Below the pieces are notes generated by a model. The model saw nothing but the letters and a program-made list of their open reading frames with translations. It had not been told where the DNA came from and made no database searches. A stretch of 64,000 nt of DNA from Thermoplasmata archaeon (GTDB taxonomy: Archaea; Thermoplasmatota; Thermoplasmata; Halarchaeoplasmatales; Halarchaeoplasmataceae), in NCBI GenBank assembly GCA_003552585.1, contig PUNK01000015.1, forward strand, positions 12,513 through 76,512, read 5' to 3'. This document shows, piece by piece, positions 36,991-56,841 of this stretch; position 1 is the stretch's first letter; every line of letters starts with the position of its first letter. The translations under genes and the position numbers were made by a program.

Positions 36991-37062
36991 CACTTATCGA
37001 ACGTACTATTAGGATTTTGAGAAATTGTAAAGGCTGTGAACTATTATTTGGAATAGAGCAAA

Positions 37063-38547
37063 TCATGAGAAACCTTGTTTTTCCATCTCTTGATTCACAG
37101 CATTAAGAAACCTTTCGGTACTCTTTGGAGGGGGATCTATCAAGCTAAGGCCAACGAATATCGATAATGTCACTAAAAAGCCCAATATGGAAGGCCACCA
37201 AGTGACCTCACCTAGATGAATAAATGCAGTGATGTATAGTGATCCGGTAGTAAACCCACCCACAAGCATCGACCATAGAGCACCCTTCGCTGAACCATTT
37301 TTCCAGAAAAAAGTACCGATCAAAGAGGGGGCCGTGACAAGTAGTCCACCAGAAGACATCGCTGACAATATAGCAATCAGGTCAAATCTGAAAAAGGAGA
37401 AAATAACACATAAAATTATCAAAACTAATATGGTCGCTTTTCCTAAAAATACCTCACTCTTTTCAGAAATGTTTTTCTTGACAACTTTGCCTACATCTCT
37501 TGTAACCATCGAACTAAGTGTCAATGCAATAGAACTGAGTGTAGAGGCTGCTGCTGCAAAAATACCTAGAAATATTATCAATGAAAGTACTGTAGGTACC
37601 CTTACTAACAATGCAGGCATAGCACCATCAGGGTCAGTCAAGCCAGGAACTACGTTGGCCGCAGAAAATCCAAGGAGAGTGGTTATTATAGTATAGATGA
37701 AACCGAAGATGGCAAAATAAATGATCATCTTTTTTAAACTGACAATATTTTTGGATACAAACATACGTTGAGATACCTGAGGATTTGTAAGTGCAAAAAA
37801 AGCCCAAGGGAATGTGAGACCTATGAATACCCTAATATCCCAGGTCATCTTTAGTAGTTCTGGAGTTCGATTTTCTACAGTACTAAAAAAGCTGATGGGC
37901 CCGCCAAAAAAAACGTAGATGATGTAAAATAGAAGTATGATGGCTGAAAAGAGCATGGTCATAGCTTGAAAAGCGTCCGTCCAAGACACAGATTTCATCC
38001 CTGCCCATACCGCAACAAAACCACTGAAAACAGCCATTGTAATAACCCCTGAATAATAAGGTAGGGCTCCACCAGTTAATCCGCTGAAAAGAAAACCTAT
38101 TCCCATCATCTGGATAGAGGTATAAGGGACAAGCATCACAAGACAAACCAAAGCCATCACCGTCCCCACTCTTGGATCATCATAACGATCACTTAACATC
38201 TCTGAAGGTGTTAAATAATTGAACCTTTGACCAGCACACCAAAAACGAGGGGCAAAAAGGACAAGTAAAATAACAGTGAAAATAAGATAAGTCATCTCAA
38301 ATCCATAAGCCCCAACACCTGTAGCATAAACAAGACCTACTAAGCCTATCATCATAAATGCACTAAATGTTGTTGCACTGTAAGTCATGGCGGAAATGAA
38401 GCCTCCAAGCGTTCTATTGGCCAAGTAAAAATCTTCAAGAGTGATGCCTACATATCTTCGAGCATGATGGGATATCAATACGCCAACAATTATCCATAGT
38501 ACGAGAGCCATTATGATATGAAAAGGAGTCATCAGGATGCACCCCAC
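37063..38547 (-). CDS. Sodium:solute symporter family (SSF) transporter
   Basis: 13 TM helices with SSF-like spacing. Overlaps the start of the small partner gene by 16 nt. Confidence 0.7.
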   Translation of the reverse strand: MGCILMTPFHIIMALVLWIIVGVLISHHARRYVGITLEDFYLANRTLGGFISAMTYSATTFSAFMMIGLVGLVYATGVGAYGFEMTYLIFTVILLVLFAPRFWCAGQRFNYLTPSEMLSDRYDDPRVGTVMALVCLVMLVPYTSIQMMGIGFLFSGLTGGALPYYSGVITMAVFSGFVAVWAGMKSVSWTDAFQAMTMLFSAIILLFYIIYVFFGGPISFFSTVENRTPELLKMTWDIRVFIGLTFPWAFFALTNPQVSQRMFVSKNIVSLKKMIIYFAIFGFIYTIITTLLGFSAANVVPGLTDPDGAMPALLVRVPTVLSLIIFLGIFAAAASTLSSIALTLSSMVTRDVGKVVKKNISEKSEVFLGKATILVLIILCVIFSFFRFDLIAILSAMSSGGLLVTAPSLIGTFFWKNGSAKGALWSMLVGGFTTGSLYITAFIHLGEVTWWPSILGFLVTLSIFVGLSLIDPPPKSTERFLNAVNQEMEKQGFS

Positions 38548-38735
38548 TCTTTAAGTCTAAGATATCCCCATATCATTACAAGCAAGGTCAAAATCGTCCA
38601 GAAAAGGTAGTTAGCCCAATAAGCGGTCATATTTCGAAGTAAAAGGTATGGGAAGGAAAGGATAACAACTGTTAACAGAACCGCGAGCAGCCCGATTTGT
38701 TTGGGATTATCGTTGAACATAACGATGATAATCAA
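38532..38735 (-). CDS. Small 2-TM membrane protein (DUF997/YhdT-like symporter accessory subunit)
   Basis: 67 aa with two hydrophobic helices, translationally coupled upstream of the SSF transporter. Confidence 0.4.
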   Translation of the reverse strand: MIIIVMFNDNPKQIGLLAVLLTVVILSFPYLLLRNMTAYWANYLFWTILTLLVMIWGYLRLKEWGAS

Positions 38736-38812
38736 TCGTTTAAAAGTATAAATAATTCACGTTGCGATATGTTTAATTAGCTAAATTACAGTTTAATAAA
38801 GGGTATGATAAC

Positions 38813-39721
38813 ATGAAAGAATATGATATTATCGTTATCGGAGGAGGGCCAGCGGGATTATCTGCTGCGATTTATACCTCTAGAGCTGGCTTCTCTACAC
38901 TTATACTTGATGAAAGGGATAAGCTCCTAGAAAAGGTTAAGCATATCGAAAATTACTTTGGTTTTCCAGAGGGTATATCTGGTGCTGAACTGTTGGAGAG
39001 GGGCAAAAGACAGGCTGAGAGATTTGGTACGATTGTGAGTTATGAAAGAGCTCTTCTCGTAAAAATTTCAGAAGAAGATTACAAGATCGATACAGCTGAA
39101 GAAGAGTATCGTACAAAAGGACTTGTCATATCACCAGGTATACAACATCAAAAGCCTATGGTTGAAGGTATCGAAGAGTTTGAAGGAAAAGGAGTCAGCT
39201 ATTGTGTGACCTGTGATGCTCCCTTGTTCAGAGGGATGAAGGTCGGTCTGATAGGTTCTCAGGACCTAGTTATAAAAGAAGCTATTGAATTATATGAGTT
39301 TACAAAAGACATAATAATCTTTACCGATGGGCGTGACTTGGATGCATCACAGATACTAATAGAAAAGCTACAAGAACATAAAATAACGGTAAACAAAGAA
39401 AATATAGTAAAAGTTGTCGGAGGAAAGGAGTTAGAGGGATTAGAACTAGAATCAGGTGTTGAAAGGCTTGATGGTGTAATGGTGGCCGAAGGCACAAGCG
39501 GCTCGCTTGACTTTGCTCGAAGCTTAGGTATACCCGTAGAAGACGATGTATTAAAGGTCGATGAAAAACAATTTACAGGGTTGCCTAGAGTTTATGCTGC
39601 AGGAGACTGTACCGGAGGAGCAAGACAAATCAGTGCTGCTGTTGGCGAAGGAGCAAAGGCGGCTCTAGGATTGATCGAGGAGCTCAGAGGAGATGAATAT
39701 AAAGATTGGAAACATAGCTGA
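38813..39721 (+). CDS. trxB: Thioredoxin-disulfide reductase
   Basis: YDIIVIGGGPAGLSAAIY (FAD), redox-active CVTCD, NADPH-binding GLIGSQDL..., AAGDCTGG. Confidence 0.8.
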   Translation: MKEYDIIVIGGGPAGLSAAIYTSRAGFSTLILDERDKLLEKVKHIENYFGFPEGISGAELLERGKRQAERFGTIVSYERALLVKISEEDYKIDTAEEEYRTKGLVISPGIQHQKPMVEGIEEFEGKGVSYCVTCDAPLFRGMKVGLIGSQDLVIKEAIELYEFTKDIIIFTDGRDLDASQILIEKLQEHKITVNKENIVKVVGGKELEGLELESGVERLDGVMVAEGTSGSLDFARSLGIPVEDDVLKVDEKQFTGLPRVYAAGDCTGGARQISAAVGEGAKAALGLIEELRGDEYKDWKHS

Positions 39722-39727
39722 GATATT

Positions 39728-40288
39728 TCACAACCCTAACTCATAATCGATCTCTTGTAAAGCATCAAGAGCTAGTTCTAAAAACTTGCTTTTGTCTATC
39801 CCCAATTTATGGCAGTGAAGAATCTTATCCCTTTCTATGTTCTTCGCGAAGGACGAATCATCAAACTTTTTTTGTACCGATTCAGGTCTAGCCTCTCTTA
39901 ATTGGCCATTAGGCATGACGAGAGCTGTGGCGATGACTAGACCTGATACCGCATCTGAGGCTATCAAGGCATGATCTAAATCGCTATCAGGTTGAACTCC
40001 TGTGTGCTCGTAATTATGTGCCTTCACCGCATGAAGCACTTCATCGTCCACTAACCCCTCCAGCATCTCAGCTGAACGATGAGCATGTCTTTCATGATCG
40101 TCTTTGGTCTCTTCATAATCAACATCGTGTAACAAACCGGTGAGTTCCCACTTTTCATCGTCTTTTCCCAGCTTTCTAGCCAAGTGTTTCATGATTTGAC
40201 TAACTGCTATCATATGTTTACGTAGATTTTCTGTTTCAACCTTCTCTCTCATCAACTTTACTGCTTCTTCTCTGTCCATAGTATGCAT
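39728..40288 (-). CDS. HD-domain phosphohydrolase
   Basis: H..HDVDY...H motif (LLHDVDYEE, HAHRSAEML). Confidence 0.6.
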   Translation of the reverse strand: MHTMDREEAVKLMREKVETENLRKHMIAVSQIMKHLARKLGKDDEKWELTGLLHDVDYEETKDDHERHAHRSAEMLEGLVDDEVLHAVKAHNYEHTGVQPDSDLDHALIASDAVSGLVIATALVMPNGQLREARPESVQKKFDDSSFAKNIERDKILHCHKLGIDKSKFLELALDALQEIDYELGL

Positions 40289-40385
40289 ATATCCCCATAT
40301 AGTTGAGTATGTAAAATTATTTTGGATGTTTTCACCACAAAATTAAAAATATATCATCCGTCAATGGGGGTAATCCGGAGATTCG

Positions 40386-42449
40386 ATGCAAAAGTACAGC
40401 CATGAAGAGATAAGAGAAAGGTTTCAGAACTTCTTTGAAAGTAAATATTCAGCGGACATCATGAGGATCGCAGATAATTACCCTGATGAAATGTCCCTTT
40501 ATACTCCTTACCAGGAGTTAGTTATGTTTTTTGGTGATGATTTTCCAAGATTTATTTTGAACAATCCTAAGAGATCTTTCGCGATCGCAGAAGAAGTCAT
40601 GCTTGATATAGCTGGTCAGGAAGAAAAGGATATGGAACTACATTTCAGGATCATAGAGCTGCCACAACCAAGGAATAAAACCATTCGAAATTTAAGGGCG
40701 GAGGATCTTGCAAAATTTATAGGCGTTGATGGCCTAGCTAGAAAGGTAACTGAAGTAAGACCTCGGTTGAGTGTTGCTGCCTTTCAATGTTTAAGTTGTG
40801 GGGAGATTACCTACGAACACCAAAAAAGCCAGAGTATGGATGTACCTAGTGGATGTCCAAACTGTGGTAAAGAATCGGGAAAAAAGGCAAAGTTTCTTCA
40901 TTTGCTAGAAGAATCGGAATTTAAAAATTACCAAAACATAGAGATCCAAGAAAGCCCCGAAGGATTGAGGGGGGGAGATCAACCTCAAAGACTGAGAGGT
41001 TGGATAGAGGATGACCTGGTTGGTAGAATATCACCAGGAGACCGTATCACAATTAACGGAATCCTGGACGGGACCCCTAAAAGAGGAAGAGGAGGAACGG
41101 AATCAAGGACCTTTGATATATTCATGAGAGTAAATAGTATAGAAGTAAAGGAATATGAATATGAAGAGGTAGAATTACAAAAAGAAGATAAGGAAAAAAT
41201 AGAAGAAGTTGGTAGTAACCCTCGGATTTTTTCTAAAATAGTATCTTCCATCGCACCTAGCATTTATGGATTGCCAATGGAGAAAACAGGATTAGCATTA
41301 CAATTGTTTGGCGGTGTAAGAAAGATAATGCCTGATGAGCAGAAGATAAGGGGTGATATACACGTATTACTTGTGGGAGATCCAGGGACCGCTAAATCAC
41401 AGCTTCTCAGATATATCTCCGATCTTTCACCCCGAGGGATGTACACATCAGGTAAGGGATCTACGGGTGCCGGATTGACTGCTGCTGCAGTTAGAGAAGA
41501 AGTTATGGGGGAGAGTCGATGGATCCTAGAGGCAGGAACCCTTGTGCTTGCCGATAAAGGCATAGCAGCGGTTGACGAGCTCGACAAGATGAGAGATGAA
41601 GACAGAAGTTCGATGCACGAAGCTATGGAACAACAGAGTATATCAGTTGCTAAAGCCGGAATAAATGCTAGACTAAACTCCAGGTGTGCTCTACTAGGGG
41701 CAGCAAATCCACAATATGGGCGATTTGAGATCCACGAAAACATCTCACAACAGATCAACCTGCCTCCGCCTCTGATTTCAAGATTTGACCTAATCTTTGC
41801 TCTCATGGACAGACCGGATAAAACAAAAGATAAAGCAATTGCAGAACACATTTTAAAAACACATCAGGCAGGGGAGGAACTCCAAAATGAACCGGAACTG
41901 GAAAAAGAGGAAAAACAATACTTTTCCAAAGATTTTTTAAGAAAATATATAGCCTACACTAAATCTATAAGCCCCATAATGACGGAGGAGTCCATGGATA
42001 AGTTAGAGGATTTTTATCTAAATATTAGAACAAGTGGAAGTGATTCTAACACCATCCCAATAACCGCAAGACAACTTGAATCTCTCATCCGATTGTCAGA
42101 GGCAAGTGCTAGAGCTCATCTCAGAGAAAAAGTAGTTAAAGAGGATGCTGAAAGAGCTATCAATGTGACCGAATATTTCTTAAGGCAAGTTGCTTCGACC
42201 GAAAGCGGATTGGATATTGATATGGTGGCGGCAGAATATGGCTCGTCAGAAAGAACCCTTGTTCATCAACTGAGTGATATAATCGACGAGTTAGATAGAA
42301 TTCATGAAGGAGGAGTCCCTGAAAAGGAGATAATCGAAGAGGCGGAAAAAAAAGGTTATACCCGGGAAAGTGTAAAGAAGGAATTGAGTCGTATGGGTAA
42401 CAGGGGACAGATATATTCCCCTATCCCTGGAAAATACAGAAAAACTTGA
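40386..42449 (+). CDS. mcm: MCM replicative helicase
   Basis: Zinc finger CLSCGE..CPNCG, Walker A IHVLLVGDPGTAKSQLL, Walker B AVDELDKM, arginine finger SRFDLIF, C-terminal wH. Confidence 0.92.
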   Translation: MQKYSHEEIRERFQNFFESKYSADIMRIADNYPDEMSLYTPYQELVMFFGDDFPRFILNNPKRSFAIAEEVMLDIAGQEEKDMELHFRIIELPQPRNKTIRNLRAEDLAKFIGVDGLARKVTEVRPRLSVAAFQCLSCGEITYEHQKSQSMDVPSGCPNCGKESGKKAKFLHLLEESEFKNYQNIEIQESPEGLRGGDQPQRLRGWIEDDLVGRISPGDRITINGILDGTPKRGRGGTESRTFDIFMRVNSIEVKEYEYEEVELQKEDKEKIEEVGSNPRIFSKIVSSIAPSIYGLPMEKTGLALQLFGGVRKIMPDEQKIRGDIHVLLVGDPGTAKSQLLRYISDLSPRGMYTSGKGSTGAGLTAAAVREEVMGESRWILEAGTLVLADKGIAAVDELDKMRDEDRSSMHEAMEQQSISVAKAGINARLNSRCALLGAANPQYGRFEIHENISQQINLPPPLISRFDLIFALMDRPDKTKDKAIAEHILKTHQAGEELQNEPELEKEEKQYFSKDFLRKYIAYTKSISPIMTEESMDKLEDFYLNIRTSGSDSNTIPITARQLESLIRLSEASARAHLREKVVKEDAERAINVTEYFLRQVASTESGLDIDMVAAEYGSSERTLVHQLSDIIDELDRIHEGGVPEKEIIEEAEKKGYTRESVKKELSRMGNRGQIYSPIPGKYRKT

Positions 42450-42462
42450 AGAAGGAAAAAGC

Positions 42463-42762
42463 ATGTCAGTTTACAGCAAAGTTTATAAGCAGGGGACTGA
42501 AACTCTTCTTGCAGCGTGTGATGAAAACGTCTTAGGTAAGACATTTGAGGAAGGAGAAGTTTATTTGAATGTTAAAGAGAGTTTTTATAAAGGAGATACA
42601 ACGGACCCTACCGAGCTTAAGAAAAGACTGAAAAGAGCAACGATTTCAAATCTTGTGGGGGAAATATCTGTAAATACAGCACTCAAAATGAAACTTGCTA
42701 ATAAAAAAGATGTTTTGTATGTAGAGGGTGTTCCTCACCTCCAGGTAATAAAAATGATGTGA
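42463..42762 (+). CDS. DUF424-like small archaeal protein
   Basis: TLLAACDENVLGKTFEEGEVYLNV resembles DUF424. 99 aa. Confidence 0.4.
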   Translation: MSVYSKVYKQGTETLLAACDENVLGKTFEEGEVYLNVKESFYKGDTTDPTELKKRLKRATISNLVGEISVNTALKMKLANKKDVLYVEGVPHLQVIKMM

Positions 42763-42774
42763 AAAGTGAGCTAG

Positions 42775-43821
42775 ATGTTCTGTGTGGAATGTGGTAAAGA
42801 ACCTGAAGAATTGTATAACGGATTATGCGACGAATGCTTTTTAGAGGAGATCGATGCTGATATCCCAGATAAGCTAGAGGTTGAAATATGTGCTTCCTGC
42901 GGATCTGTGAAAGAAGGACAACGTTGGATTGAAAATCCAGATCTGTATTCAATAATGCTGGAAAGGATCGATGACTCTATAAAAACTGATCAGAAAATAG
43001 ATAGCTACTCGTTCAGTACTGAATTTATAGAGCAGGACCTCAATAACATTCAAGCAGATATAGACATTGAACTGGTAACTCAAGGCTTAAAAAAAACTGT
43101 CAACAAGTCAACCGTGATTAGATTGAAAAAAGGGCAGTGTCAAACTTGTAGCAGGATACACGGCAATTATTACGAGGCAATAATTCAGATCAGACCTACT
43201 AAAGATAAAATGACTGAGGAACAGAAAGAGATAGTCAGGAAAAAGGTTGAAAAGGAGGTATCTGTTAAAAGAGGAGATGAAAGAAACATATTTGTAACGG
43301 CCCATGAAGAACGTCATGGCGGATTAGATTTTTTCATGAGCGACAACGGGGGGAGTAAAAAATTATCTAAGAACATTGCCCAAAGATTTGGAGGACACAT
43401 TACCATCTCAAGTAAATTGGCGGGGAGGAAAGATGGAAGAGATATATACAAGATGACCTATTCTGTAAGATTACCCCCCTATGAAAAAGGAGATTTTGTT
43501 CTTTTTGATGACATTATCTACCAGGTGAAGGAGATCGGTACTAGCAGCGGAAACATAGTTTTAATTGAATTAAGAACAGGTAAAAAAAATGTTATAGATA
43601 AAAGGGATTCTTATTCGCTCGAAGTGATTGGAGGGAGTGAATTGGTAAAAGAGTCTGTAATTGTTTCAGAGACTGAAAAGGAAATAAAGATACTAGATCC
43701 TGATGACTATCAAACAAAAACCCTATTGAAACCTGAAGGATATCGATCTACAGGGGATAATGTTCTAGTTCTAAAATATGATGATAGAATATTGATACTT
43801 CCTGAAAAAGAGTTAGACTGA
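42775..43821 (+). CDS. NMD3-family ribosomal export/maturation factor homolog
   Basis: N-terminal double zinc binding CVECG..CDEC..CASCG, then OB-like domains. 348 aa. Confidence 0.65.
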   Translation: MFCVECGKEPEELYNGLCDECFLEEIDADIPDKLEVEICASCGSVKEGQRWIENPDLYSIMLERIDDSIKTDQKIDSYSFSTEFIEQDLNNIQADIDIELVTQGLKKTVNKSTVIRLKKGQCQTCSRIHGNYYEAIIQIRPTKDKMTEEQKEIVRKKVEKEVSVKRGDERNIFVTAHEERHGGLDFFMSDNGGSKKLSKNIAQRFGGHITISSKLAGRKDGRDIYKMTYSVRLPPYEKGDFVLFDDIIYQVKEIGTSSGNIVLIELRTGKKNVIDKRDSYSLEVIGGSELVKESVIVSETEKEIKILDPDDYQTKTLLKPEGYRSTGDNVLVLKYDDRILILPEKELD

Positions 43822-43845
43822 AAGTCTATATAACCATAATGCATT

Positions 43846-44880
43846 GTGTTCGATATGAGTGAGATTGACGATAAAGAAAACTACCTGCTTACAACTTGGT
43901 ACGGTGTATTTATTATAAGAGATGAAAAAATAATTGAAAAAAGACTGTTTCCCAAAAATCCAGATGTCATATCCAAAAAAAGGATGATGATCAAACAAGG
44001 ACTTATCCTTCCAGAAGAAAAAGAATTGGCAGAAATATTTCGTGGAAACATATGTGTAACCACAAAAAGATTAGCTCGGTTGGGTGAGTTTAAAGAGAAC
44101 ATCGAATTGGATAAAACTCTGCTAAATGACTTGTCGTTCGATGATGATATTTTAAGGGAAGCCCTTTTAATTCAAGGTGAAAAAGAACTAAAAGACTCTG
44201 TGGATACGGATAAACATCTTGGAAGGGCTGTTGAGACTATCAGGGATCTAAATGAAACTATAAACATATTGACTGAACGTTTACGAGATTGGTACTCTCT
44301 ACATTATCCAGAGCTCGAAGAGGATACGAACAGTAAAAAATTCGTAGAGCTAATTGCTGAATTCGGAGATAGAGAAAGCATAGTAGAAAATACAAACATC
44401 GATGGTAATACCGTTGGAAAGAATATTACTGAAAATGAAAAAGAACTTTACAAAAGACTTGCCAAAGAGGTTAAATCCATGATGGATTTTAAAGAAATGT
44501 TGACCGGATATGTAGAAAAATCCATCAAAGAAACAGCACCTTCATTGACAAAATTGACTGGTCCTAAACTAGGCGGTGAATTAATATCACACGCCGGTTC
44601 TTTAAAAAAATTGGCTAGTATGCCAGCAAGTACGATCCAGGTACTAGGTGCAGAAAAATCTCTATTCCGACATCTTGAAAGGGGAACTGATCCGCCTAAG
44701 CACGGATATATTTTACAGCATCCGATTGTACATGGAGCTGCACCTAACAAAAGAGGGAAAGTAGCAAGAACTTTTGCAAATAAAATAGCTATAGCTGCTC
44801 GAGTCGATTATTTTGGAAATAGAGATATAGGAGACAGACTCAGGGAGGAACTAGAGTCGAGATTGGCAAATCTGAAGTGA
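43846..44880 (+). CDS. nop5: C/D box sRNP protein Nop5 (Nop56/58)
   Basis: NOP domain LTGPKLGGELISHAGSLKKLASMPASTIQVLGAEKSLFRHLERGTDPPKHGYILQHP. No fibrillarin gene follows it. Confidence 0.82.
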   Translation: MFDMSEIDDKENYLLTTWYGVFIIRDEKIIEKRLFPKNPDVISKKRMMIKQGLILPEEKELAEIFRGNICVTTKRLARLGEFKENIELDKTLLNDLSFDDDILREALLIQGEKELKDSVDTDKHLGRAVETIRDLNETINILTERLRDWYSLHYPELEEDTNSKKFVELIAEFGDRESIVENTNIDGNTVGKNITENEKELYKRLAKEVKSMMDFKEMLTGYVEKSIKETAPSLTKLTGPKLGGELISHAGSLKKLASMPASTIQVLGAEKSLFRHLERGTDPPKHGYILQHPIVHGAAPNKRGKVARTFANKIAIAARVDYFGNRDIGDRLREELESRLANLK

Positions 44881-44895
44881 ACAGGTCAGTTGAGC

Positions 44896-45309
44896 TTAGA
44901 AAGGTGTTTCTGGCATATCAGCACCAAGCGCTGTGTTTCTTTCAACTTTTTCTCGGGTATATATGGGTTCAGAGACAGGCATCTTTTCAACTTTGCCCTT
45001 TTTCTTTGCAATAGACCATGGCCATATCCTAGAAACATGATCTGCTCTAATGTACACTTCCTTTAAATTAATAGACGTCCAATCAACAAATCCTAAGAAT
45101 TCTTCTTCTTTAGTTGTTTCTGACTCGCTCATAGAAACTTCCTTCCAATTTATTTGAGTAGCTGAACCCTGGTAGATATCTTGAAGAATTATTGTTGTTT
45201 TATCGTATTCGACCAACCTGCCCATGAATGCCATTCCATCATCTAACACTACAAGTATCCTATTCCCCTCATGCTCCTTTAATTTCTTTTCGAGTAATGT
45301 CCCTAGCAA
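44896..45309 (-). CDS. Sm-like (LSm) fold protein with C-terminal extension, tentative
   Basis: NRILVVLDDGMAFMGRLVEYDKTTIILQDIY resembles the Sm1/Sm2 motifs. Confidence 0.3.
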   Translation of the reverse strand: MLGTLLEKKLKEHEGNRILVVLDDGMAFMGRLVEYDKTTIILQDIYQGSATQINWKEVSMSESETTKEEEFLGFVDWTSINLKEVYIRADHVSRIWPWSIAKKKGKVEKMPVSEPIYTREKVERNTALGADMPETPF

Positions 45310-45392
45310 TCAAACCACCTATATATAAATGCACTTAGGTGTAAATATAATTTGTGTTGAATGATATCTTTTTGATAATAAATTTCCAATCC

Positions 45393-46628
45393 TTATGTCC
45401 CTTCCTCCCATCCAGTTAGATAATCCCTTTGTTCTTTTGTTAATTCATCGATTATTATCCCTCTAGTCTCGAGCTCTAGCCTTGCTACTCTTTCATCCAG
45501 TTTTCTAGGTATATTATGAACACCTGGTTCAAGTTCTTTGTTCTTCATTATATACTCCGCTGCTAGCATTTGTAGGGCAAAGCTCATATCCATTATTTCT
45601 GCTGGATGTCCCTGCCCTATAGCAAGATTAACCAGCCTTCCATCAGCTAAAAGATATATCTTTCGTCCGTCATTCATCTTGTACTCTTTTACATCTTCCC
45701 GAACAATTCTGCTGGAAACGGATAAGTTTTCTAACACTGTTTTAGAGATCTCATTATCAAAATGTCCAGAGTTAGCCAAAATACAGCCATCTTTAGCAAC
45801 AGATAACTACTCTTCATCAACAACTGATTTACAGCCAGTAGCAGTCACAACAAAGTCAGCTTTTTTAATTCCCTCATGCATGGGCAAAACCTCAAAACCA
45901 TCCATATTAGCCTCCACTGCTTTTATTGGGTCAACTTCGGATATCATGACATTTGCTCCCATCCCTTTAGCTCTCATAGCGATACCTCTTCCACACCACC
46001 CATAACCTCCAACTAGGAAATTTTTCCCACTAACCTGTAGATTTGTTGCAGTCAACAGACCATCTATGGTGGACTGGCCTGTACCGTATCGGTTATCAAA
46101 AAGATGTTTCATGTAAGCGTCATTAACAGACATAACTGGAAATTCTAATTTCCCTTCAGATTCCATTGCCCTGAGACGGACGATTCCAGTCGTTGTTTCT
46201 TCAGCGCCTCCTTTTATGTTATCGAGTAGATCTCTCCTCGTAGTATGAACTAAAGATATGAGATCACCCCCATCATCTATGATAACGTCAGGATCCTGAT
46301 CGAGTATAAGATTTAGATTTTTGTAATATTCCTCTTCTGACTCTCCTCTCTTTGCATAAACATCGAGACCATATTCCTCTCTAAGTGCTTTTGCCACGGA
46401 ATCATCTGTAGATAAAGGATTGCAACTTGCCATTTTTACAGTAGCACCTGCTTCTCTAAGAGATAACCCTAAAATCCCTGTTTTTGCTTCAACATGAAGA
46501 GCCATGGATATTTTTACACCATCAAGATGTCCTGCTTTCTTCACGGATTCTCTAACCCTCTTTAGAACTTTCATGTGGTCTTTAGCCCATTTCAATCTTT
46601 TCACACCTTTTTCTACATCTCTTTCCAT
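45393..46628 (-). pseudogene. ahcY: S-adenosyl-L-homocysteine hydrolase interrupted by an in-frame TAG at 45807-45809
   Basis: The upstream ORF has the AhcY N-terminal and NAD domains (..NFLVGGYGWCGRGIAMRAKGMGANVMISEVDP..TATGCKSVVDEE). The stop is followed 27 nt later, in the same frame, by [20 protein letters not shown], which is the conserved AhcY continuation (..MKDGAILANAGHFD.EI). Confidence 0.75.
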
Positions 46629-46659
46629 CTTATCAGACCAAGAATCAAAAAAGATCGAT

Positions 46660-47385
46660 TTAATCTTTCTGTTGAGAAAGTTTTTTCAGTCTGTTAAAGA
46701 TATGATCTAAGACCTCTGAAAGGTTATCCTCGTTATCAAAATCCGATTTGGAAGGAGATAGATCTAGTAATTTCGGGACAGCCCTCACTATATTATCTAC
46801 GATGGTGATATCAGCTGTTCGGGATGTTCTTGAGAGTGGATTAAGATCAATAGTTATCACCTTTTTCCCCATATCAACCAGTGCTTGTGCTCGGTCACCA
46901 TCTTCTAATGGAACCAAGATAACATCAGAATCAAAAATACCCTCCTTTGTACATTTTCCTCTTTCATGGTCTAAACCTTTTATTTTTGCATCAGGCTCCA
47001 ATCCCAATACTTGCTCTGCACCTTGTTCCTCGAGGATTGAAATTATACGCCCAATCCTTTCAGGCGTCCTATGAAAAAGGTTGACTTCTAATTTTGCTTC
47101 AAATCTATTTGAAATTTCAACTATTCCAGAAGGAACAAGAGCAGCAACATTACCATTTACCGATATCACGGGCTTTTCAGCTTCCATTAAAACATGTATT
47201 GCTGCCCTCTCTGCTTTCAATGCAGGTGGAATCGTTTCCTCACCTAATATATAATCGAAGGCTTCACCTCGGCCATGGGCTATAAGTCCCGCTTTAGAAG
47301 TTATCCCCGCTTCTACACCCTCTACAAGCATCTCTCTAGTTCTCAGAGATAAATATCTTGGATGAGTTTTTGGTATCTCAGTCAT
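46660..47385 (-). CDS. 4-phosphopantoate--beta-alanine ligase (archaeal phosphopantothenate synthetase, DUF137)
   Basis: HPRYLSLRTREMLVEGVEAGITSKAGLIAHGRGEAFDYILGE resembles the archaeal PPS family. Confidence 0.55.
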   Translation of the reverse strand: MTEIPKTHPRYLSLRTREMLVEGVEAGITSKAGLIAHGRGEAFDYILGEETIPPALKAERAAIHVLMEAEKPVISVNGNVAALVPSGIVEISNRFEAKLEVNLFHRTPERIGRIISILEEQGAEQVLGLEPDAKIKGLDHERGKCTKEGIFDSDVILVPLEDGDRAQALVDMGKKVITIDLNPLSRTSRTADITIVDNIVRAVPKLLDLSPSKSDFDNEDNLSEVLDHIFNRLKKLSQQKD

Positions 47386-47484
47386 TATGATACACCATAG
47401 GGGGTAACTATGAGGTGATATATAGTTATCATCTCTTCGGAAAACATTTAATCCTCGTCTACTATCACTAAAGAGAGTGAAATT

Positions 47485-47751
47485 ATGTATACAATCTACA
47501 TATTCGTCGCAATATGCTTGACTGGTTTTGCCTTACTCCAAGCAATTGTGGGAGTTATAAGCTATAATCGAATGCGCAATTCAAAATTTTTACTAATCTC
47601 TTTAGCATTCATAGTTTTTGTTTTTAAAGGGATTTATTCTTTGTTAGCCATAAGTGGCATTTATGAGATATTCCCTGCACCCCATATCAATATACTAATT
47701 TGGGATCTTTTAATCGTTACACTTCTTTATCTAGCCATCCTCAAGGAGTGA
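47485..47751 (+). CDS. Small 3-TM membrane protein
   Basis: ORF only, hydrophobic. Confidence 0.3.
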   Translation: MYTIYIFVAICLTGFALLQAIVGVISYNRMRNSKFLLISLAFIVFVFKGIYSLLAISGIYEIFPAPHINILIWDLLIVTLLYLAILKE

Positions 47752-47760
47752 TAATAAAAG

Positions 47761-48294
47761 ATGGATTTAAAAGAAGATGTCCTGGAACTCGAAAGTCGAA
47801 GGGATATTTTTGAACATATATCTAAATATCCCGGAAGTTACATGAGAGAGATGCAGGAAAAGCTCGACATGGCTACCGGACAATTAGAATATCATCTAAA
47901 GTACCTCGAGGACCATAAATTGATTTCCTCTCAGATGAGCGGGAACAAAAAAAGATACTTTGTAGAAAAAGAGGTGAACTATCCAGATAGAAAATTGATA
48001 TCGATATTAAGACAGAAGACTTTGAGGAAGATTCTCATAATGCTTATAGAAAGAGGAAAGATGAATTTTTCTCAGATTGATGAAGAGGTAGATTTATCCA
48101 AATCAACCGTGTCTTTTCATCTAAAAAAGCTTGAAAATAAAGGATTAATAGAAACTCGAAGGATAGGACGAAAAAAAGTATATAGTTGTAAAAATGATAA
48201 AGAAATTGCACAAGTCCTGATAACTTATAAATCCAGTTTCCTTGACAAAGCTGTTGACAGATTTGTCGAAACATGGAGTGATATGAAACGATGA
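47761..48294 (+). CDS. Transcriptional regulator with two winged-helix domains
   Basis: Two wHTH-like segments (RRDIFEHISKYPGSYMREMQEKL and RKILIMLIERGKMNFSQIDEEVDLSKSTVSFHLKKLENKGLIE). Confidence 0.45.
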   Translation: MDLKEDVLELESRRDIFEHISKYPGSYMREMQEKLDMATGQLEYHLKYLEDHKLISSQMSGNKKRYFVEKEVNYPDRKLISILRQKTLRKILIMLIERGKMNFSQIDEEVDLSKSTVSFHLKKLENKGLIETRRIGRKKVYSCKNDKEIAQVLITYKSSFLDKAVDRFVETWSDMKR

Positions 48295-48941
48295 ATGACA
48301 AAAGACTTGACGAAAGAAAAAAACTAGTTGAGAATCTTAAAAGAAAAGGATACGTAAGGAGTAAAAGTGTTGAAATAGCGTTGCTCAAAGTGCCAAGACA
48401 TAAGTTCATACCTCCAAATATTAGAGGACAGGCTTACGTAGATTCTCCTCAACCTATTGGTAATGGACAAACTATTTCTGCTCCACACATGGTGGCGATG
48501 ATGGTGGAGGAGCTGAACCTTGAAAAAGGGATGAAAGTCCTAGAAGTTGGTGGGGGTAGGGGATATCACGCAGCAGTTATTGCTGAAGTGGTTGGAAAGG
48601 AAGGAGAAGTATATACCATCGAGAGGATAGACAACCTATCTGAATATGCTGATAAAATGCTTTCAAAATTAGGATATAATAATGTTCATGTGATAAAAGC
48701 TGATGGTTCTAAAGGATACTCCGAAGAGGCTCCCTTTGATAGGATATCTGTTGCATGTGGTGCACGTGAGGTCCCTCCGCCTCTTTTAGAACAATTAAAA
48801 CCGGGAGGAATATTATTGATACCTATTGGCAAATATTTCTACCAAGAACTAACTAAGATAACAAAATCTAAGGACGGTGAGATAAAAAAGGAAAGATTGG
48901 GAGGCGTGCTGTTCGTTCCCTTGCAAGGCGAATACAGTTGA
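48291..48941 (+). CDS. pcm: Protein-L-isoaspartate O-methyltransferase
   Basis: VDSPQPIGNGQTISAPHMVA..VLEVGGGRGYHAAV..LKPGGILLIPIG. Confidence 0.85.
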   Translation: MNDKRLDERKKLVENLKRKGYVRSKSVEIALLKVPRHKFIPPNIRGQAYVDSPQPIGNGQTISAPHMVAMMVEELNLEKGMKVLEVGGGRGYHAAVIAEVVGKEGEVYTIERIDNLSEYADKMLSKLGYNNVHVIKADGSKGYSEEAPFDRISVACGAREVPPPLLEQLKPGGILLIPIGKYFYQELTKITKSKDGEIKKERLGGVLFVPLQGEYS

Positions 48942-48943
48942 AT

Positions 48944-50521
48944 TTATCGGATAGGAACAAGTGATATCCAAGGACTGCCCTTCTCTTCGTCGGTTACGAT
49001 AGCATACAATCCTGTTTTTGGTTTTATTCCATAAATACAGGGAGTTTTGCCGATGGATGTGACCACAAAATAGGTGTCCGCCATGTTTTTTATTTCTGGT
49101 TTTAGCTGAAGACCATGTTTTATGATACCTATTCCTAGATTTTTTGATATCTTTGTATTGGCCACCGCTTCAAGGAGGTCTTTGATGGCCATCTCATCTC
49201 CCATCAAATACTCCAAAGTGTCGAAGCCAGTGTAATCGATCATAGGGGTTTTTCCGCCATCAGTAATCTCGTTGATCTGCTGATTGTAAATCTTTCCAAC
49301 TTGGTCTCTTTTTTTGCCCCCTAATGCCATCATATAAGGATTCTCAGTGCTTGAGGAGAAATAATCTACTATCCTAAACCTGCTGTCAAATACGTCCTCA
49401 GATATGAAACGTGTGAGATCCTCCCTCAAATTATCTGGATGAGTTCCACCGGAAAGTACACCGAGAATCCCTCTATTTTGAGTCAGGAAATTAAGGAAAA
49501 TTGGTCTCAAAACGGAGAAGTATTCTTCAGTACTAACATCTTCCATAATTTCAAAAACGTTGTAGCTGCCTTTTTCAAATCCTCCTTCGAGTAACTCATC
49601 TAAGTCAGTAGTACCAGTGCTGTATTTGTGTTCCTTGTCATTGATCGGTTTCCACTCCTTATGCTCTTCAACACTAACTCTATAAGGTTCGAAACACGTA
49701 AACCTGCCCCCGTAAAGGGTCATAAGATAAGTAGGCTGTTTGATACCAATACCTCTTAATTTCTTCAACTGTATTTGTCTGACGTCTCTGTTTTCGATCT
49801 GAAACCTTTCAAGTTTTATGACACCATCGACCAGATATTCAAGAGCTCTAGCATCTTCTTTCTCTAAAACCAATAGAAGATTAGTTCCTGAATTCTCGAC
49901 TAGGTCCTTCTGAAGAGTCATTATAAAAGTTTCCGCATCAAGACCATATTTATGAGTTAATCCTTCAACACTGTCGATAACTAACATCGTCCTTTCAGGA
50001 AGAATTTTATCAATACGATCATAGATCCGTTCAAGTCCCGGAATCTTTTTATCTAGTCCTTTAAGCATCGTTCTGTTCACTTCTGTAGGCATCTCATCCG
50101 TCTCAATAGTCCCAAGGAACTGTTTTGCAGATTCGATCTTCTTCTTTTCAGATTCGGGTAATTCTTCCTCCTCTTCCTCGATGTCTCTATATAATGTTTC
50201 TAGAAAGACTTTGCTCGAATCAACAATTCTGTTTTTCATCTCTTTTTCTTCTAGCCAGGGAAATTGTTGGTAAAGACTGTGGTCTGAAACCCTTGTAGAT
50301 AAATAAAAGCTACGATCAGGATCGCCGACCTCCTCTATAAGTTGAAGTGAAAGTGTGGTTTTACCTGTCCCAGCAGTACCTTTAACCATAAGAGAGGAGC
50401 CGCCTTTTTTCCCGATAAAATTGATGACCTCTTTAGGGATGGCTATATCGTGTTTACTTTTGCTATCTCGAACTACATCCATCTTTTTATTTTTTATTGG
50501 CTCAGATTCCATTTTCTCCAC
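48944..50521 (-). CDS. Double-domain KaiC-like (RecA-superfamily) ATPase
   Basis: N-domain Walker A MVKGTAGTGKTTLSLQ. A second KaiC-like domain has a degenerate P-loop. 525 aa. Confidence 0.68.
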   Translation of the reverse strand: MEKMESEPIKNKKMDVVRDSKSKHDIAIPKEVINFIGKKGGSSLMVKGTAGTGKTTLSLQLIEEVGDPDRSFYLSTRVSDHSLYQQFPWLEEKEMKNRIVDSSKVFLETLYRDIEEEEEELPESEKKKIESAKQFLGTIETDEMPTEVNRTMLKGLDKKIPGLERIYDRIDKILPERTMLVIDSVEGLTHKYGLDAETFIMTLQKDLVENSGTNLLLVLEKEDARALEYLVDGVIKLERFQIENRDVRQIQLKKLRGIGIKQPTYLMTLYGGRFTCFEPYRVSVEEHKEWKPINDKEHKYSTGTTDLDELLEGGFEKGSYNVFEIMEDVSTEEYFSVLRPIFLNFLTQNRGILGVLSGGTHPDNLREDLTRFISEDVFDSRFRIVDYFSSSTENPYMMALGGKKRDQVGKIYNQQINEITDGGKTPMIDYTGFDTLEYLMGDEMAIKDLLEAVANTKISKNLGIGIIKHGLQLKPEIKNMADTYFVVTSIGKTPCIYGIKPKTGLYAIVTDEEKGSPWISLVPIR

Positions 50522-50526
50522 CTACT

Positions 50527-50952
50527 CTATCTTTTGAATTCCTTTGATTCTTCAATGCTCATTGCAATTTTTGATAAATCTTTCATGAGCTTATTTTTTT
50601 CAGATGTTTCGCCTAACAATGAAAGAACTGCATTCTTTCCAACACCTTTGATTAACAATATATCTTCATCCGAAGATACCTCTACTATTTGGGGCTCGCT
50701 TTTATCAAAACTCGCAAATATAACGTCAGAAGCACCCAATATAGTTGCGGATAGTGCACTAAAACTCTCGTTTTTTTCCTGCTTTTCCATTTTTGTAGCT
50801 AGTGGAATGCCATTCTTCGAAGCAAGTACTAAGGCTTCCATATAATCATGGAAATTCTCTTCAAATATTGACTCGACCTCTGTTTTTATAGTGATAGTTC
50901 CACGCTCCTGTGGTTTGTAAGAATTCTTAATAAGGGTAGATGATGTTAACAT
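50527..50952 (-). CDS. Roadblock/LC7 (MglB-like) domain protein
   Basis: 141 aa, LC7-like alpha/beta pattern (ALVLASKNGIPLA...ILLIKGVGKNAVLSL). Confidence 0.45.
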   Translation of the reverse strand: MLTSSTLIKNSYKPQERGTITIKTEVESIFEENFHDYMEALVLASKNGIPLATKMEKQEKNESFSALSATILGASDVIFASFDKSEPQIVEVSSDEDILLIKGVGKNAVLSLLGETSEKNKLMKDLSKIAMSIEESKEFKR

Positions 50953-50973
50953 ATTTAAGTTTTGACCGAGTTT

Positions 50974-51198
50974 TCACATGAAATCAAATAGATGAAAATC
51001 CCTCCGACCCTGCATTTTCTTCTTCATCTCTGACACCAAAGAACGATAATAAGACAGATAGTTTCTTACGTTCTCCAATTCATTTAATAGCCTTTTTTCT
51101 TCCTCATTTAGTTCATCGATCTCTGATTGTATTTCCTTCAGCCTATTACGACTTTCCCTCAATTGATCCTTTATTCCCTTCAGGGTTCTTTCATCCAT
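50974..51198 (-). CDS. Small coiled-coil protein
   Basis: Heptad-rich sequence, 74 aa. Confidence 0.3.
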   Translation of the reverse strand: MDERTLKGIKDQLRESRNRLKEIQSEIDELNEEEKRLLNELENVRNYLSYYRSLVSEMKKKMQGRRDFHLFDFM

Positions 51199-51203
51199 GA
51201 ACT

Positions 51204-51440
51204 TTACCTCACACTATCCCCCATTCTTTCGATCGAAGATGTGAAATCCCTTTCATCCTTTGTCAGAGTCATCAAGGTTTCCTCTAGGGACGTTATTTCA
51301 TCTTTTAGATTTTTGACCTTTTTTTTAAGTTCATGTTTTTCTTTTCGAATTGATTCGATACGACGTAGAAGTTCGAGTTCTCTCTCCTCCCATCTTCTTT
51401 TTTCCTCGATCGCCATGAGCGTTTTATCACTCGAAGACAT
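51204..51440 (-). CDS. Small coiled-coil protein. It is 5 nt upstream of the previous one in a different frame, so it could be the frameshifted N-terminal half of one gene.
   Basis: Heptad-rich sequence, 78 aa. Confidence 0.3.
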   Translation of the reverse strand: MSSSDKTLMAIEEKRRWEERELELLRRIESIRKEKHELKKKVKNLKDEITSLEETLMTLTKDERDFTSSIERMGDSVR

Positions 51441-51449
51441 GTCTATCTT

Positions 51450-52037
51450 TCACCCATTCCTTTTTTTCATTTTTATTTTTCCATATAGGGTCGATAATTT
51501 GCGAGTTTCTCTCCGGTCACAATAGGGACAATAAAGAGTATCTTGAGTCCTCTCCATGGCTCTCCTGCAGTTGAAACAATATCCACGCACAACACCAAGA
51601 TCACTTCCGATCGTAGTGAGTTGAATAGAAGGCTCCATCTGGATAATCTTTGCTCTTACAATATCTCCCTTCAGATACTTATCCTTTACCTTTTCCGTAT
51701 AATCATCTGAGATTTTTGATATATGTATGGTCCCTTCGATATCCATACGGACACCTCTTGAATGTCCTTCGACTAATTCTATATTCATAATTGCTATAGA
51801 TTTCCTTCTATCTCTTATCTCACCGTATACTATATCACCCTCTTTCAAATCTGTAACTGGATTGATCGATCTAACGTGTGCAACTAACTCATCCTCGTCG
51901 TATTCTACACGTCCAAATGTTTTAGAATAAATTATTCCGTTCTCTTCATATGTTCCTTCACCGGGCATCCATTCCTCATGGGTACCAACTCTGTCGCCGG
52001 GCATCACGATTTTCTCTTTGGTTTCAGCCATCTTCAT
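51450..52037 (-). CDS. csl4: Exosome complex RNA-binding subunit Csl4
   Basis: N-terminal domain, S1 domain and C-terminal zinc ribbon CFNC..CPYC. Confidence 0.8.
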   Translation of the reverse strand: MKMAETKEKIVMPGDRVGTHEEWMPGEGTYEENGIIYSKTFGRVEYDEDELVAHVRSINPVTDLKEGDIVYGEIRDRRKSIAIMNIELVEGHSRGVRMDIEGTIHISKISDDYTEKVKDKYLKGDIVRAKIIQMEPSIQLTTIGSDLGVVRGYCFNCRRAMERTQDTLYCPYCDRRETRKLSTLYGKIKMKKRNG

Positions 52038-52659
52038 TCCTCTTTGATATTAACAGCATTGCCTCAAAATACTTTTTGGGTTTGCTGTGAAAGTTGAATT
52101 GCCTATCTATTTCCAACATATATCTTTTTTCCCCCTCTATCTTATACCCTAAATCCTGTAAAAAAGACTTTACAAAGTCTACAGATTTAGAATTGTGAAG
52201 GCTGTAAATATTAGGGGCAGTATCAACAGCCTTTTTCAAAAATGGCCGGTCAGCCCCCTTTTTCTGTGAACCAAACGGGGGGTTCATCAGTACTGTATCA
52301 CCCTTTTTATCAAAATCGTTTATATCCTGATGATAGAAGGTAATATTTTCACATCCCCACTTTTGGGCTATTTTTTTTGCCTTTTTTAAAGCATCTTCAT
52401 CTAAATCCACAGCATGTATGTAAGCAGCTTGTAATAAACATGCACCTAATGTGAAAATTCCCGTACCACAACCAAGATCCAAGACAATCTTAGATTGTAT
52501 GTCTCCTCTCGAATAGGCTAAAAATAAGATATCTGCAGCAACAGATGCTGATGTTACATATTGTTCAAGCCTGGCCTTGGGTTTTGGATGTGGGGGTATC
52601 TCTTCGAGCACTATCTCTAAATCCTTCTTTTTAATAGCTTTTGCTTCGAACGAGAGCAT
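52024..52659 (-). CDS. METTL5-like N6-adenine RNA methyltransferase (NPPFG class)
   Basis: VLDLGCGTGIFTLGA (motif I) and VLMNPPFG (motif IV). Confidence 0.6.
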   Translation of the reverse strand: MLSFEAKAIKKKDLEIVLEEIPPHPKPKARLEQYVTSASVAADILFLAYSRGDIQSKIVLDLGCGTGIFTLGACLLQAAYIHAVDLDEDALKKAKKIAQKWGCENITFYHQDINDFDKKGDTVLMNPPFGSQKKGADRPFLKKAVDTAPNIYSLHNSKSVDFVKSFLQDLGYKIEGEKRYMLEIDRQFNFHSKPKKYFEAMLLISKRNEDG

Positions 52660-52661
52660 GC

Positions 52662-53048
52662 CTATCCTTCACCAACCCTTTTCCAAACTTCGTCTGACAG
52701 TCCTTCGTATACAGAAGTTTCTTCTTCTTCCTCCACTTCCTCTTTCTCTTTCTTTTCAAGTAACTTCCAAATTTTATTCTCTTTGATACGCCAATAATGA
52801 ATTCTCCATCTTTTACCGCTTGGAAGTATAGTAGTTTCTTCTTCAGTGGTCAATATATCATAATCTTCGAGCATATAAAACAAGTCTCTTTCTTCTTTAG
52901 ATATAATATTATCAGTTATAGTGGTGTCGTATCCAAAGAGTGCCATAACCTTTTCAGCTATCTGATCGGCCTCATCCTTATCGATATCCCTTTCTTGTAA
53001 GACTTTTCTTAGCACTCTCTTCATGTCATCCAACTGTACTCTTGCCAC
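52662..53048 (-). CDS. Hypothetical acidic protein
   Basis: ORF only. Glu-rich C-terminus. Confidence 0.3.
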   Translation of the reverse strand: MARVQLDDMKRVLRKVLQERDIDKDEADQIAEKVMALFGYDTTITDNIISKEERDLFYMLEDYDILTTEEETTILPSGKRWRIHYWRIKENKIWKLLEKKEKEEVEEEEETSVYEGLSDEVWKRVGEG

Positions 53049-53135
53049 ATTTTACCTCCAGCTTAAAAAGGAAAAGAATGACGATGTTATAAATTTATCG
53101 AATAATATAAGGTTTGTTAATTGTTCTTTATACCA

Positions 53136-54113
53136 TCAAGGATTGATTTCTATCCCTATCTCCTCTGCAATTTCTTTATATCTGTTTCTAATGGTTACTT
53201 CTGTCACACCTGCTACTTCTGCTATAGCTCGTTGAGTTCGAGGAGTCCCTTCAACTATTGAAGCGATATATATCGCAGCAGCTGCAACACCTGTAGGACC
53301 CTTACCTGAAGTCAGGCCCAATTCTGTTGCCTTAGAGATTATATCTTCACCACGAGAGATCACATCCCTATCTAGTTCTAATTTGCTACAGAATCTAGTT
53401 ATGTACTCTTCCGGTCGGGTAGGCATAAGTTTCAAGCTCAATTCCCTAGATAAAAATCTGTAAGCACGTCCAATTTGTTTTTCATCTGAATCAGCGGCTT
53501 GTGATATTTCAGTAAGGGTTCTTGGTACATTGCATTTCCTGCAGCCAGCATAAAGGGAAGACGCTATCACAGTTTCTATACTCCTTCCCCGGATGAGGTT
53601 CTTTTCAACCGCTTGACGGTAGATCATAGCTGCAGTCTCCCTTATGCTACGTGGAAGTCCCATCTTGGAAGAAAGTCGATCTAATTCTCGAAGTGCGGAG
53701 GCAAGATTTCTTTCTGTAGCATTTGATATCCTAATCCTTCTATGCCACTTCCTTACTCTGTATACCTGGCCTCTATTCTTATGAGGTATCGTCCTTCCAT
53801 AAGCATCTTTATTTTTCCATGATATATGTGTAGAAAGACCTTTGTCGTGGGTCAAGTAATTCATAGGAGCACCAGTCCTAGCTCGATTCTCTCTTTGGAC
53901 ACTGTCGAACGCGCGCCATTCAGGCCCTTCATCTATATAGTAATCGTCTATAACAAGGCCGCACTTTTCACAAATAACTTCACCACGTCCATAGTCCTTA
54001 GATATATGCAATCCTCCGCATTCAGGACACTCTTTTATTTTTTCAACACGTACTTCTTTCTCCCTTTGCATAATATCTCCATCAATAGGGTTTTTTCTCC
54101 ATCTTCGACACAC
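53136..54113 (-). CDS. tfb: Transcription initiation factor IIB
   Basis: Zinc ribbon CPECGG..CEKCG, B-reader, two cyclin folds ([20 protein letters not shown] ... [38 protein letters not shown]). Confidence 0.92.
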
Positions 54114-54175
54114 ATATATAAATATTCCCCGGAGTGAAGGAAAGATTTATTTCTTAAAAAATACGATAATGTTAC

Positions 54176-54484
54176 ATGTACTCTATCATATACACCACTG
54201 TAGGGGACGAAATGCAAGGTAAAGAGCTTGCACGTGAATTACTAGATTGTGAACTAATAGCATGTGCAAATATGATGAAAATGAGATCTTTATATCACTG
54301 GGAGGGAGATCTAGTTGAGGATACCGAGTTTGCCGTTCTACTAAAAACAAAGGGTTCTCTTGTTGATAAGGTTGTCCGCACGATTGAAAAAATCCACCCT
54401 TACGATGTTCCTTGTGTTCTTGAATTTGAGGTAAATAAAGGTTCTAGTGGTTATCTAGAATGGATAGACGAACAAACATCTTAA
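54176..54484 (+). CDS. cutA: Divalent-cation tolerance protein CutA
   Basis: YSIIYTTVGD...SLYHWEGDLVEDTEFAVLLKT...YDVPCVLEF. Confidence 0.75.
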   Translation: MYSIIYTTVGDEMQGKELARELLDCELIACANMMKMRSLYHWEGDLVEDTEFAVLLKTKGSLVDKVVRTIEKIHPYDVPCVLEFEVNKGSSGYLEWIDEQTS

Positions 54485-55107
54485 TCCAATATTTTCACAG
54501 GTGTATCGACCATATCTATCAATTTTTTTGCCCACCTAAGTTTTTTTAGTTTAATATGTGGTTTCATAGAACCAGATGCAGGTGAGTCAAAGTTCCAACC
54601 ATTCAAAATAACTTCTTTTGCCCCAAAATGATCTGCTATGAAAACTGCCCTATCTCCATCTGTAAATCCACCGAAATTATAGATCCCTGGGGGTGGGGCG
54701 CATTGGCATGTGCAAATCACATGGCCTGTGAATCTTGATGCCCAACGTTTGATAAGATCTATGTTATCCCCGTGCGCATGAATAACTGCTGGAACCCCTT
54801 CCGAATTCAAGTCCTGTTGAGCTTTTGCATCACCATCTAAATCAGTTACTAATAGGTCAGGCTTGCCCCCCACTTCTAAAGAAGGTGTTAGTGCAGAACC
54901 TGCAATTATCTGTATATCACAACATGATTTTTCTATAAGTGGACCGTGTATCTCAACTCTTTTTCCCTTCAACATTTTGAGAGGGGCCAGATCGTCACTT
55001 ATTCTTGACTCCGCCAAGGCTAAAGCAGAATTAATGTCCTCTTCTTCAGAATAATTAAAATCTTTTATTATCTCGTTATAGAGTGGATACCAAATATCAT
55101 AATCCAT
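54481..55107 (-). CDS. MptE-like 6-hydroxymethyl-dihydropterin diphosphokinase (DUF115)
   Basis: LLVTDLDGD...AVIHAHGDNID is a DUF115-type motif arrangement. Confidence 0.45.
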   Translation of the reverse strand: MDYDIWYPLYNEIIKDFNYSEEEDINSALALAESRISDDLAPLKMLKGKRVEIHGPLIEKSCCDIQIIAGSALTPSLEVGGKPDLLVTDLDGDAKAQQDLNSEGVPAVIHAHGDNIDLIKRWASRFTGHVICTCQCAPPPGIYNFGGFTDGDRAVFIADHFGAKEVILNGWNFDSPASGSMKPHIKLKKLRWAKKLIDMVDTPVKILD

Positions 55108-55110
55108 AAA

Positions 55111-56235: not shown

Positions 56236-56346
56236 CTGTGTCTCCTTGAGGTTTTAATCAACTTGTGATAGATATTTAATATTTTCCAAGATTTAACTTG
56301 TTATTCCGATAACTAAATAAGTAGTATATATTAATAACCATCAACA

Positions 56347-56841
56347 ATGCATCTCTCGATAAGAAAAGCTAGGTTGGAAGATGTACCAATCCTTACAGAT
56401 ATTGAGATGAAATCACTAGGTCCTATTTGGAAAAAGGAAAAGATCGATTATAAAAAAGATTATCTCTTTGAACATATTGAACAAGGTGTGCTGGAAAATA
56501 ATATAGTGATAATTGAAAGAAGGGACTCGATCCTTGCTTTTTCATATTCAATAATATATGAAGATGTGGTCACTGGAGCTATAGTAAAAGAGATAAGTAC
56601 TTTAGCAGTACATCCTGATCATTTAGGAGAAGGGCTCGGGTCTTTATTATTGGAGCAGGAGGAAAGAGATGCGATCGAAAAAAAAGTTAATATTATAAAA
56701 TTGGAAGTACTATCACGTAATAAAAGGGCTTTGCGTTTTTACGAGAAAGATGGCTTCGTAGAAAAGAAAAAAATAATGGTAAAAAAATTATCAGATAACG
56801 AAGAAAATAATCAAAATAATGAAACCAAGGAGAATGACTGA
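56347..56841 (+). CDS. GNAT N-acetyltransferase (RimI-like)
   Basis: VHPDHLGEGLGSLLL...RALRFYEKDGF. Confidence 0.7.
   Translation: MHLSIRKARLEDVPILTDIEMKSLGPIWKKEKIDYKKDYLFEHIEQGVLENNIVIIERRDSILAFSYSIIYEDVVTGAIVKEISTLAVHPDHLGEGLGSLLLEQEERDAIEKKVNIIKLEVLSRNKRALRFYEKDGFVEKKKIMVKKLSDNEENNQNNETKEND

Follow-up and report, generated by a model that had tools for sequence, protein, structure and literature searches.

An in-frame TAG in an archaeal adenosylhomocysteinase gene is probably a base error of the deposited assembly

Results

An ordinary AhcY gene with one in-frame stop

The window that we analyzed, meaning the whole stretch of 64,000 nucleotides, carries a gene for S-adenosylhomocysteine hydrolase (AhcY) among ordinary archaeal housekeeping genes: those for MCM, NMD3, Nop5, an LSM protein, TFB, TBP and IleRS. 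Further housekeeping genes of the window encode the CCA-adding enzyme, diphthine synthase and PEP synthase. One gene near AhcY encodes a protein of 522–525 aa whose P-loop ATPase domains are of the GvpD type (PF07088, PF20440, PF06745), and its annotated neighbors include no other gas-vesicle gene.

Translation of the AhcY reading frame gave 412 codons with a single internal stop, a TAG, and placed both halves of the gene in the same frame (Table 1). In the ORF listing the gene appears in two pieces, one of 273 aa and one of 128 aa whose TTG start lies 27 nt past the stop. That distance accounts for one detail of the initial annotation, which had the conserved part of the protein resuming 27 nt downstream: the conserved continuation in fact begins at the codon right after the TAG, and 27 nt is the distance to the TTG at 45779, where the C-terminal ORF has its earliest possible start. 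The rest of its description of the gene, namely its identity as AhcY, the shared frame and the single TAG, was borne out by the translation and by alignment to solved structures over the full length. With X at the stop, the protein matched 7r3a from query residue 8 to 411, end-to-end over both halves (E=3.8e-147), and 7r37 nearly as well (E=1.3e-145). The stop aligns with the His of ‘..rmEHFllmKDGA..’ in the solved archaeal AdoHcy/S-inosylhomocysteine hydrolases.

An intact 411-aa version of the same protein, from a second assembly that is described below, has Glu at position 274 (P0121). It scored 586.6 bits against TIGR00936 ahcY (cut-off 497.6), with residues 6–411 covering positions 10–416 of the 416-position profile, an end-to-end match, and 618.6 bits against NF004005. 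Both Pfam domains, AdoHcyase (PF05221) and AdoHcyase_NAD (PF00670), were found on the gene in that assembly. In an alignment of 35 AhcY sequences all invariant columns were intact on both sides of the TAG, and the C-terminal 137 codons were fully conserved with no frameshift. Intact homologues of 410–412 aa, up to 78% identical to the AhcY of the window, occur in MAGs of hypersaline Thermoplasmata that are labeled Thermoplasmatota, Candidatus Saliniplasma or Candidatus Natronoplasma. Judged by its sequence and with codon 274 read as Glu, the gene is an unremarkable member of its family, the adenosylhomocysteinases. It resembles the archaeal AdoHcyases and S-inosyl-L-homocysteine hydrolases (TIGR00936; 7r3a, 7r37) in its collinear full length, in having both AdoHcyase domains and in all invariant residues, the GHFD motif included, and differs from them solely by the TAG at codon 274 in the deposited assembly.

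Table 1. Features of the window and bases at which it differs from the Logan contig SRR490150_6684
Feature	Position	Strand	Description
AhcY, complete reading frame	45393..46628	minus	411 codons and terminator TAA, one interruption; from translation and PDB matches over the full length
In-frame TAG of AhcY	45807..45809	minus (‘cta’ on the plus strand)	codon 274 of 411; from translation
AhcY N-terminal fragment (P0088)	45807..46628	minus	273 aa; identical to an NCBI protein from a contig of 94,587 bp
AhcY C-terminal fragment (P0122)	45393..45779	minus	128 aa from TTG; exact match, NCBI only
Geranylgeranyl reductase family gene	13239..14408	minus	interrupted by TAA
In-frame TAA of the reductase	14085..14087	minus	codon 108; sole other internal stop of the window
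Difference	6678		window G, Logan T; synonymous; GGGTG to GGGGG (Logan to window)
Difference	14087	plus	window A, Logan T; TAA replaces AAA in the reductase
Difference	43352		window G, Logan T; NMD3 Val193 to Gly; GGGGTG to GGGGGG (Logan to window)
Difference	45809	plus	window A, Logan C (T versus G on the coding strand); TAG replaces GAG in AhcY
Difference	51070		window G, Logan T; Asn replaces Lys
Difference	51410		window T, Logan C; Ile replaces Val
Small ORF	50974..51198	minus	one of two adjacent ORFs (74 and 78 aa) with the differences at 51070 and 51410
Small ORF	51204..51440	minus	the other of the two
GvpD-type protein	48944..50521	minus	522–525 aa
Trm5/TYW2-type tRNA methyltransferase	11484..12524	minus	PF02475 with TYW2_N_2 and Trm5_N
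Trm5/TYW2-type tRNA methyltransferase	31149..32129	plus	PF02475 with TYW2_N_2 and Trm5_N
Archaeal CCA-adding enzyme	1757..3079	minus	TIGR03671; ends in TAG
Tandem TAG codons of the CCA-adding enzyme gene	1742-1759	minus	second in-frame TAG four codons on

A second interrupted gene

The initial annotation mentioned that another gene of the window is broken by a single in-frame stop. This is probably the geranylgeranyl reductase family gene, which carries a TAA at codon 108 and whose protein scores 188.7 bits against TIGR02032. In the public record the reductase is split into 107 + 240 aa, and the 240-aa C-terminal fragment clusters with an intact protein of 389 aa from the second assembly (P0125), which has AAA (Lys) where the window reads TAA; the two genes differ at one base, 14087.

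We also considered four other same-frame ORF pairs as possible split genes (9495/10521, 17598/18081, 54481/55111 and 58470/59424) and rejected them, as Logan gene calls or family matches identify them as separate genes.

A second assembly has sense codons at both stops

The 90%-identity cluster that contains the 273-aa AhcY fragment has one other member, the 411-aa P0121, which comes from the Logan assembly of the public run SRR490150. P0121 is the AhcY translation of the window with Glu (GAG) at residue 274 in place of the TAG, and its gene lies on the same Logan contig as that of the intact reductase (SRR490150_6684, 81,852 bp). We used this contig for comparison. The deposited MAG may derive from SRR490150 itself or from a different sample taken at that site, and the comparison is one of assembly with assembly.

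The two versions were compared base by base over two stretches of the window, 35393..56628 (4 substitutions in 21,236 nt) and 3239..24408 (2 substitutions in 21,170 nt). The locus is 99.98% identical at the nucleotide level, with no indels. The six differing bases in 42.4 kb comprise one synonymous, three missense and two nonsense changes, and both internal stops of the window are among them. Two of the missense changes lie in a pair of small ORFs that had no Pfam match. Outside the compared stretches, an exact look-up of six more window proteins found them identical in the NCBI and Logan sources.

Disagreement at the TAG base, for which the initial annotation had looked to the raw reads, was thus found in substance, through the Logan assembly of reads rather than in the reads themselves. 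Short contigs of the same population are also present in the JGI metagenome 3300000477 (SL_5KL_010_SED), where they match 7,357 nt of the window except at one base (32745). No third assembly was found over the AhcY site: a 50-mer and a 26-mer were unmatched in metagenome contigs, JGI included, and the 50-mer around the stop was also unmatched in a contig collection with one genome per species. The argument for an error at 45809 draws its support from one alternative assembly.

Two assemblies that are 99.98% identical and differ at 45809 are also what a polymorphism would produce. The TAG could be a genuine nonsense allele of some members of the natural population, that is, a strain-level loss of function or a young pseudogene, which the MAG assembler happened to pick; the Logan assembly would then show the intact allele. 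A metagenome consensus can mix alleles. This reading needs two independent nonsense alleles, a TAA and a TAG, in core metabolic genes that lie 32 kb apart in an almost invariant background, and neither AhcY nor the reductase shows further decay or a frameshift. Signs of a pseudogene were not found: the disruption is not reproduced in the Logan contig, there is no indel, and AhcY has lost no invariant residue.

The six differences resemble errors more than strain variation

Variation between near-identical strains is expected to be mostly synonymous. Only one of the six differences is, which speaks against a real allele; on the assumption that 70% of real variants are synonymous, one or none in six would have P=0.01. 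Random single substitutions in these genes are expected to be 22% synonymous, 73% missense and 4.8% nonsense. The observed 1/3/2 pattern is in line with unselected random change and is a poor match to real variation under purifying selection. At two of six, nonsense changes exceed even the random-error expectation (P=0.03), a value to be read with the fact that the window was singled out because of those stops.

Two of the six differences, at 6678 and 43352, are GGT to GGG changes when read from Logan to window. Changes of T to G after a run of G account for 0.8% of the substitutions that are possible in the compared sequence, so that two in six would arise by chance with a probability of about 0.001 under uniform substitution. 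Meacham et al. (2011, PMC3295828) reported GGT to GGG as the strongest motif among Illumina systematic errors, and both sites resemble such errors in sequence and in direction, as if the window held the error. This Illumina signature on two other differences argues against a real allele at the stops and indicates that the window version carries error-type bases. The stop-making bases at 45809 (C to A on the plus strand, G to T on the coding strand) and 14087 (T to A on the plus strand) do not share the motif; we infer their error origin from the differences that accompany them, since neither has a signature of its own.

Codon 274 in related loci

We next consider the codon that relatives have at the position of the TAG. 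The related AhcY loci come from MAGs of soda-lake and salt-lake sediments (Kulunda-type sample names, Great Salt Lake, Candidatus Halarchaeoplasma); NMD3 is absent from their 3-kb flanks. In the closest clade, hypersaline Thermoplasmata, Glu is found at codon 274 in 12 of 15 loci (GAG in 9, GAA in 3) and Ala or Ser in the remaining 3. More distant loci have His (CAC/CAT) in 37 of 40 cases. The initial annotation, which took the position to be usually His, is therefore right for the wider family and not for the closest clade, where Glu prevails. None of the 56 related loci has a stop at this codon.

Across the relatives, position 274 is thus Glu, Ala, Ser, Asp or His, with GAG/GAA, GCN, TCT and CAC/CAT among the codons. 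No strict residue constraint applies, and this tolerance would suit a real nonsense allele as well as insertion of some other amino acid at a TAG. The Logan codons look ancestral and the stops of the window do not, which favors the Logan version. It is not credible that the Logan version is the faulty one, since errors would then have had to restore an ancestral sense codon twice, once in each gene.

No signs of recoding in the window

Decoding of the TAG as an amino acid, whether by pyrrolysine (Pyl), Genetic Code 34, a suppressor tRNA or read-through, would allow full-length AhcY to be made. The host lineage belongs to Thermoplasmatota, the phylum that also contains the Pyl-using Methanomassiliicocci, and the case resembles archaeal Pyl decoding in that an in-frame TAG lies in a conserved housekeeping gene of a Thermoplasmatota archaeon. 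It differs in that this TAG is single, unconserved, missing from the second assembly and accompanied by a TAA. The strongest argument against decoding is the GAG at codon 274 of a 99.98%-identical genome, together with the companion TAA in the other interrupted gene, which is beyond Pyl decoding; in addition, no relative has a TAG at this codon. In the Code 34 preprint (Kivenson et al., bioRxiv 10.1101/2024.09.30.615893), the Pyl archaea listed from Thermoplasmatota are all Methanomassiliicocci.

Stop codon usage in the window points the same way. For 66 genes, assembled by hand from the ORF list and the Logan and JGI gene calls, the terminators are TGA in 32, TAA in 25 and TAG in 9, and the internal stops are one TAA and one TAG, so that TAG is internal in 1 of 66 genes and terminates 9. 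The TAG-ended IleRS stops at about the end of its family profile (residue 987/1038 corresponds to MupA profile position 974/1024). Such ordinary use of TAG as a terminator sets the window apart from Code 34, in which every TAG is Pyl. Termination at TAG does not by itself exclude Pyl, since TAG can be frequent in archaea that use Pyl (Kivenson et al., bioRxiv 10.1101/2024.09.30.615893). As a separate observation, the gene for the archaeal CCA-adding enzyme ends in TAG and has a second in-frame TAG shortly after it (Table 1).

A search for the decoding machinery agreed with the initial annotation, which had seen no evidence of Pyl: in the 64-kb window, ARAGORN detected no tRNA gene, Rfam gave no match above the gathering threshold and none of the annotated ORFs is a Pyl gene. 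The sole radical-SAM protein among these ORFs is an AmmeMemoRadiSam enzyme and not PylB. We rejected a PYLIS-like structure, as the 120 nt from the AhcY TAG fold at −24.4 kcal/mol with z = −0.54 versus shuffles, and we rejected systematic recoding, as ORFs lengthen non-specifically when TAG, TGA or TAA is read as sense. The initial annotation had also raised the possibility that the interruptions are systematic; this was not supported, since one stop is a TAA and the other a TAG, the Logan contig has neither, and the window has no third interrupted gene. Recurrence, conservation and reproducibility were each looked for and not found, and on these sequence data the AhcY interruption very probably belongs to no recoding system. 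We regard decoding of the TAG as highly improbable.

Discussion

We think it likely that the TAG in AhcY is a base-level artefact of the deposited assembly (G to T on the coding strand at 45809) and that the codon of the organism is GAG. This reading follows from the sense codons that the Logan contig has at both stop sites and from the error-type substitutions elsewhere in the window. It includes two steps: we infer that the window base is wrong rather than the Logan base, and that it is an error rather than a rare real allele. A real nonsense allele ranks below an error, since it calls for two such alleles in core genes of a sequence that is otherwise invariant, and we consider it unlikely. 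Among the causes that the initial annotation offered, sequencing error is thus the one favored, by the GAG and AAA codons of the Logan contig and the two GGT to GGG changes, while an emerging pseudogene and read-through are not.

If the base at 45809 is wrong, it would most likely stem from uncorrected read errors or from a minority allele that entered the consensus during assembly of the MAG. The TAA of the reductase would have the same origin. The AhcY of the organism would then be an ordinary, intact enzyme of 411 aa made under the standard code.

One further scenario combines a real stop with decoding. The TAG, and possibly the TAA, could be real in a tolerant sub-lineage of this hypersaline Thermoplasmata population that acquired suppression or Pyl insertion very recently, while a 99.98%-identical sister strain keeps GAG. 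Though we give this even less credence than decoding in general, it would, if true, show stop-codon reassignment at its very beginning in a relative of Methanomassiliicoccales that is not a methanogen. More generally, a real TAG would point to stop-codon recoding in a lineage of halophilic Thermoplasmata that is not known to use pyrrolysine.

Under the preferred reading, an assembly error, wrong single bases in a public MAG have broken up two core genes, each of them annotated as a pair of fragments (273 + 128 aa and 107 + 240 aa), and public databases hold four fragment proteins instead of two intact enzymes. A second assembly of public reads sufficed to resolve both stops. Screens for recoding that use interrupted conserved genes should therefore cross-check their candidates against a second assembly before interpreting them.

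Two features of the wider window are worth recording. Its 64 kb of densely packed housekeeping genes run without a tRNA gene or an Rfam family. They include two separate genes for Trm5/TYW2-type tRNA methyltransferases, on opposite strands and less than 20 kb apart, both with the same set of domain matches (Table 1).
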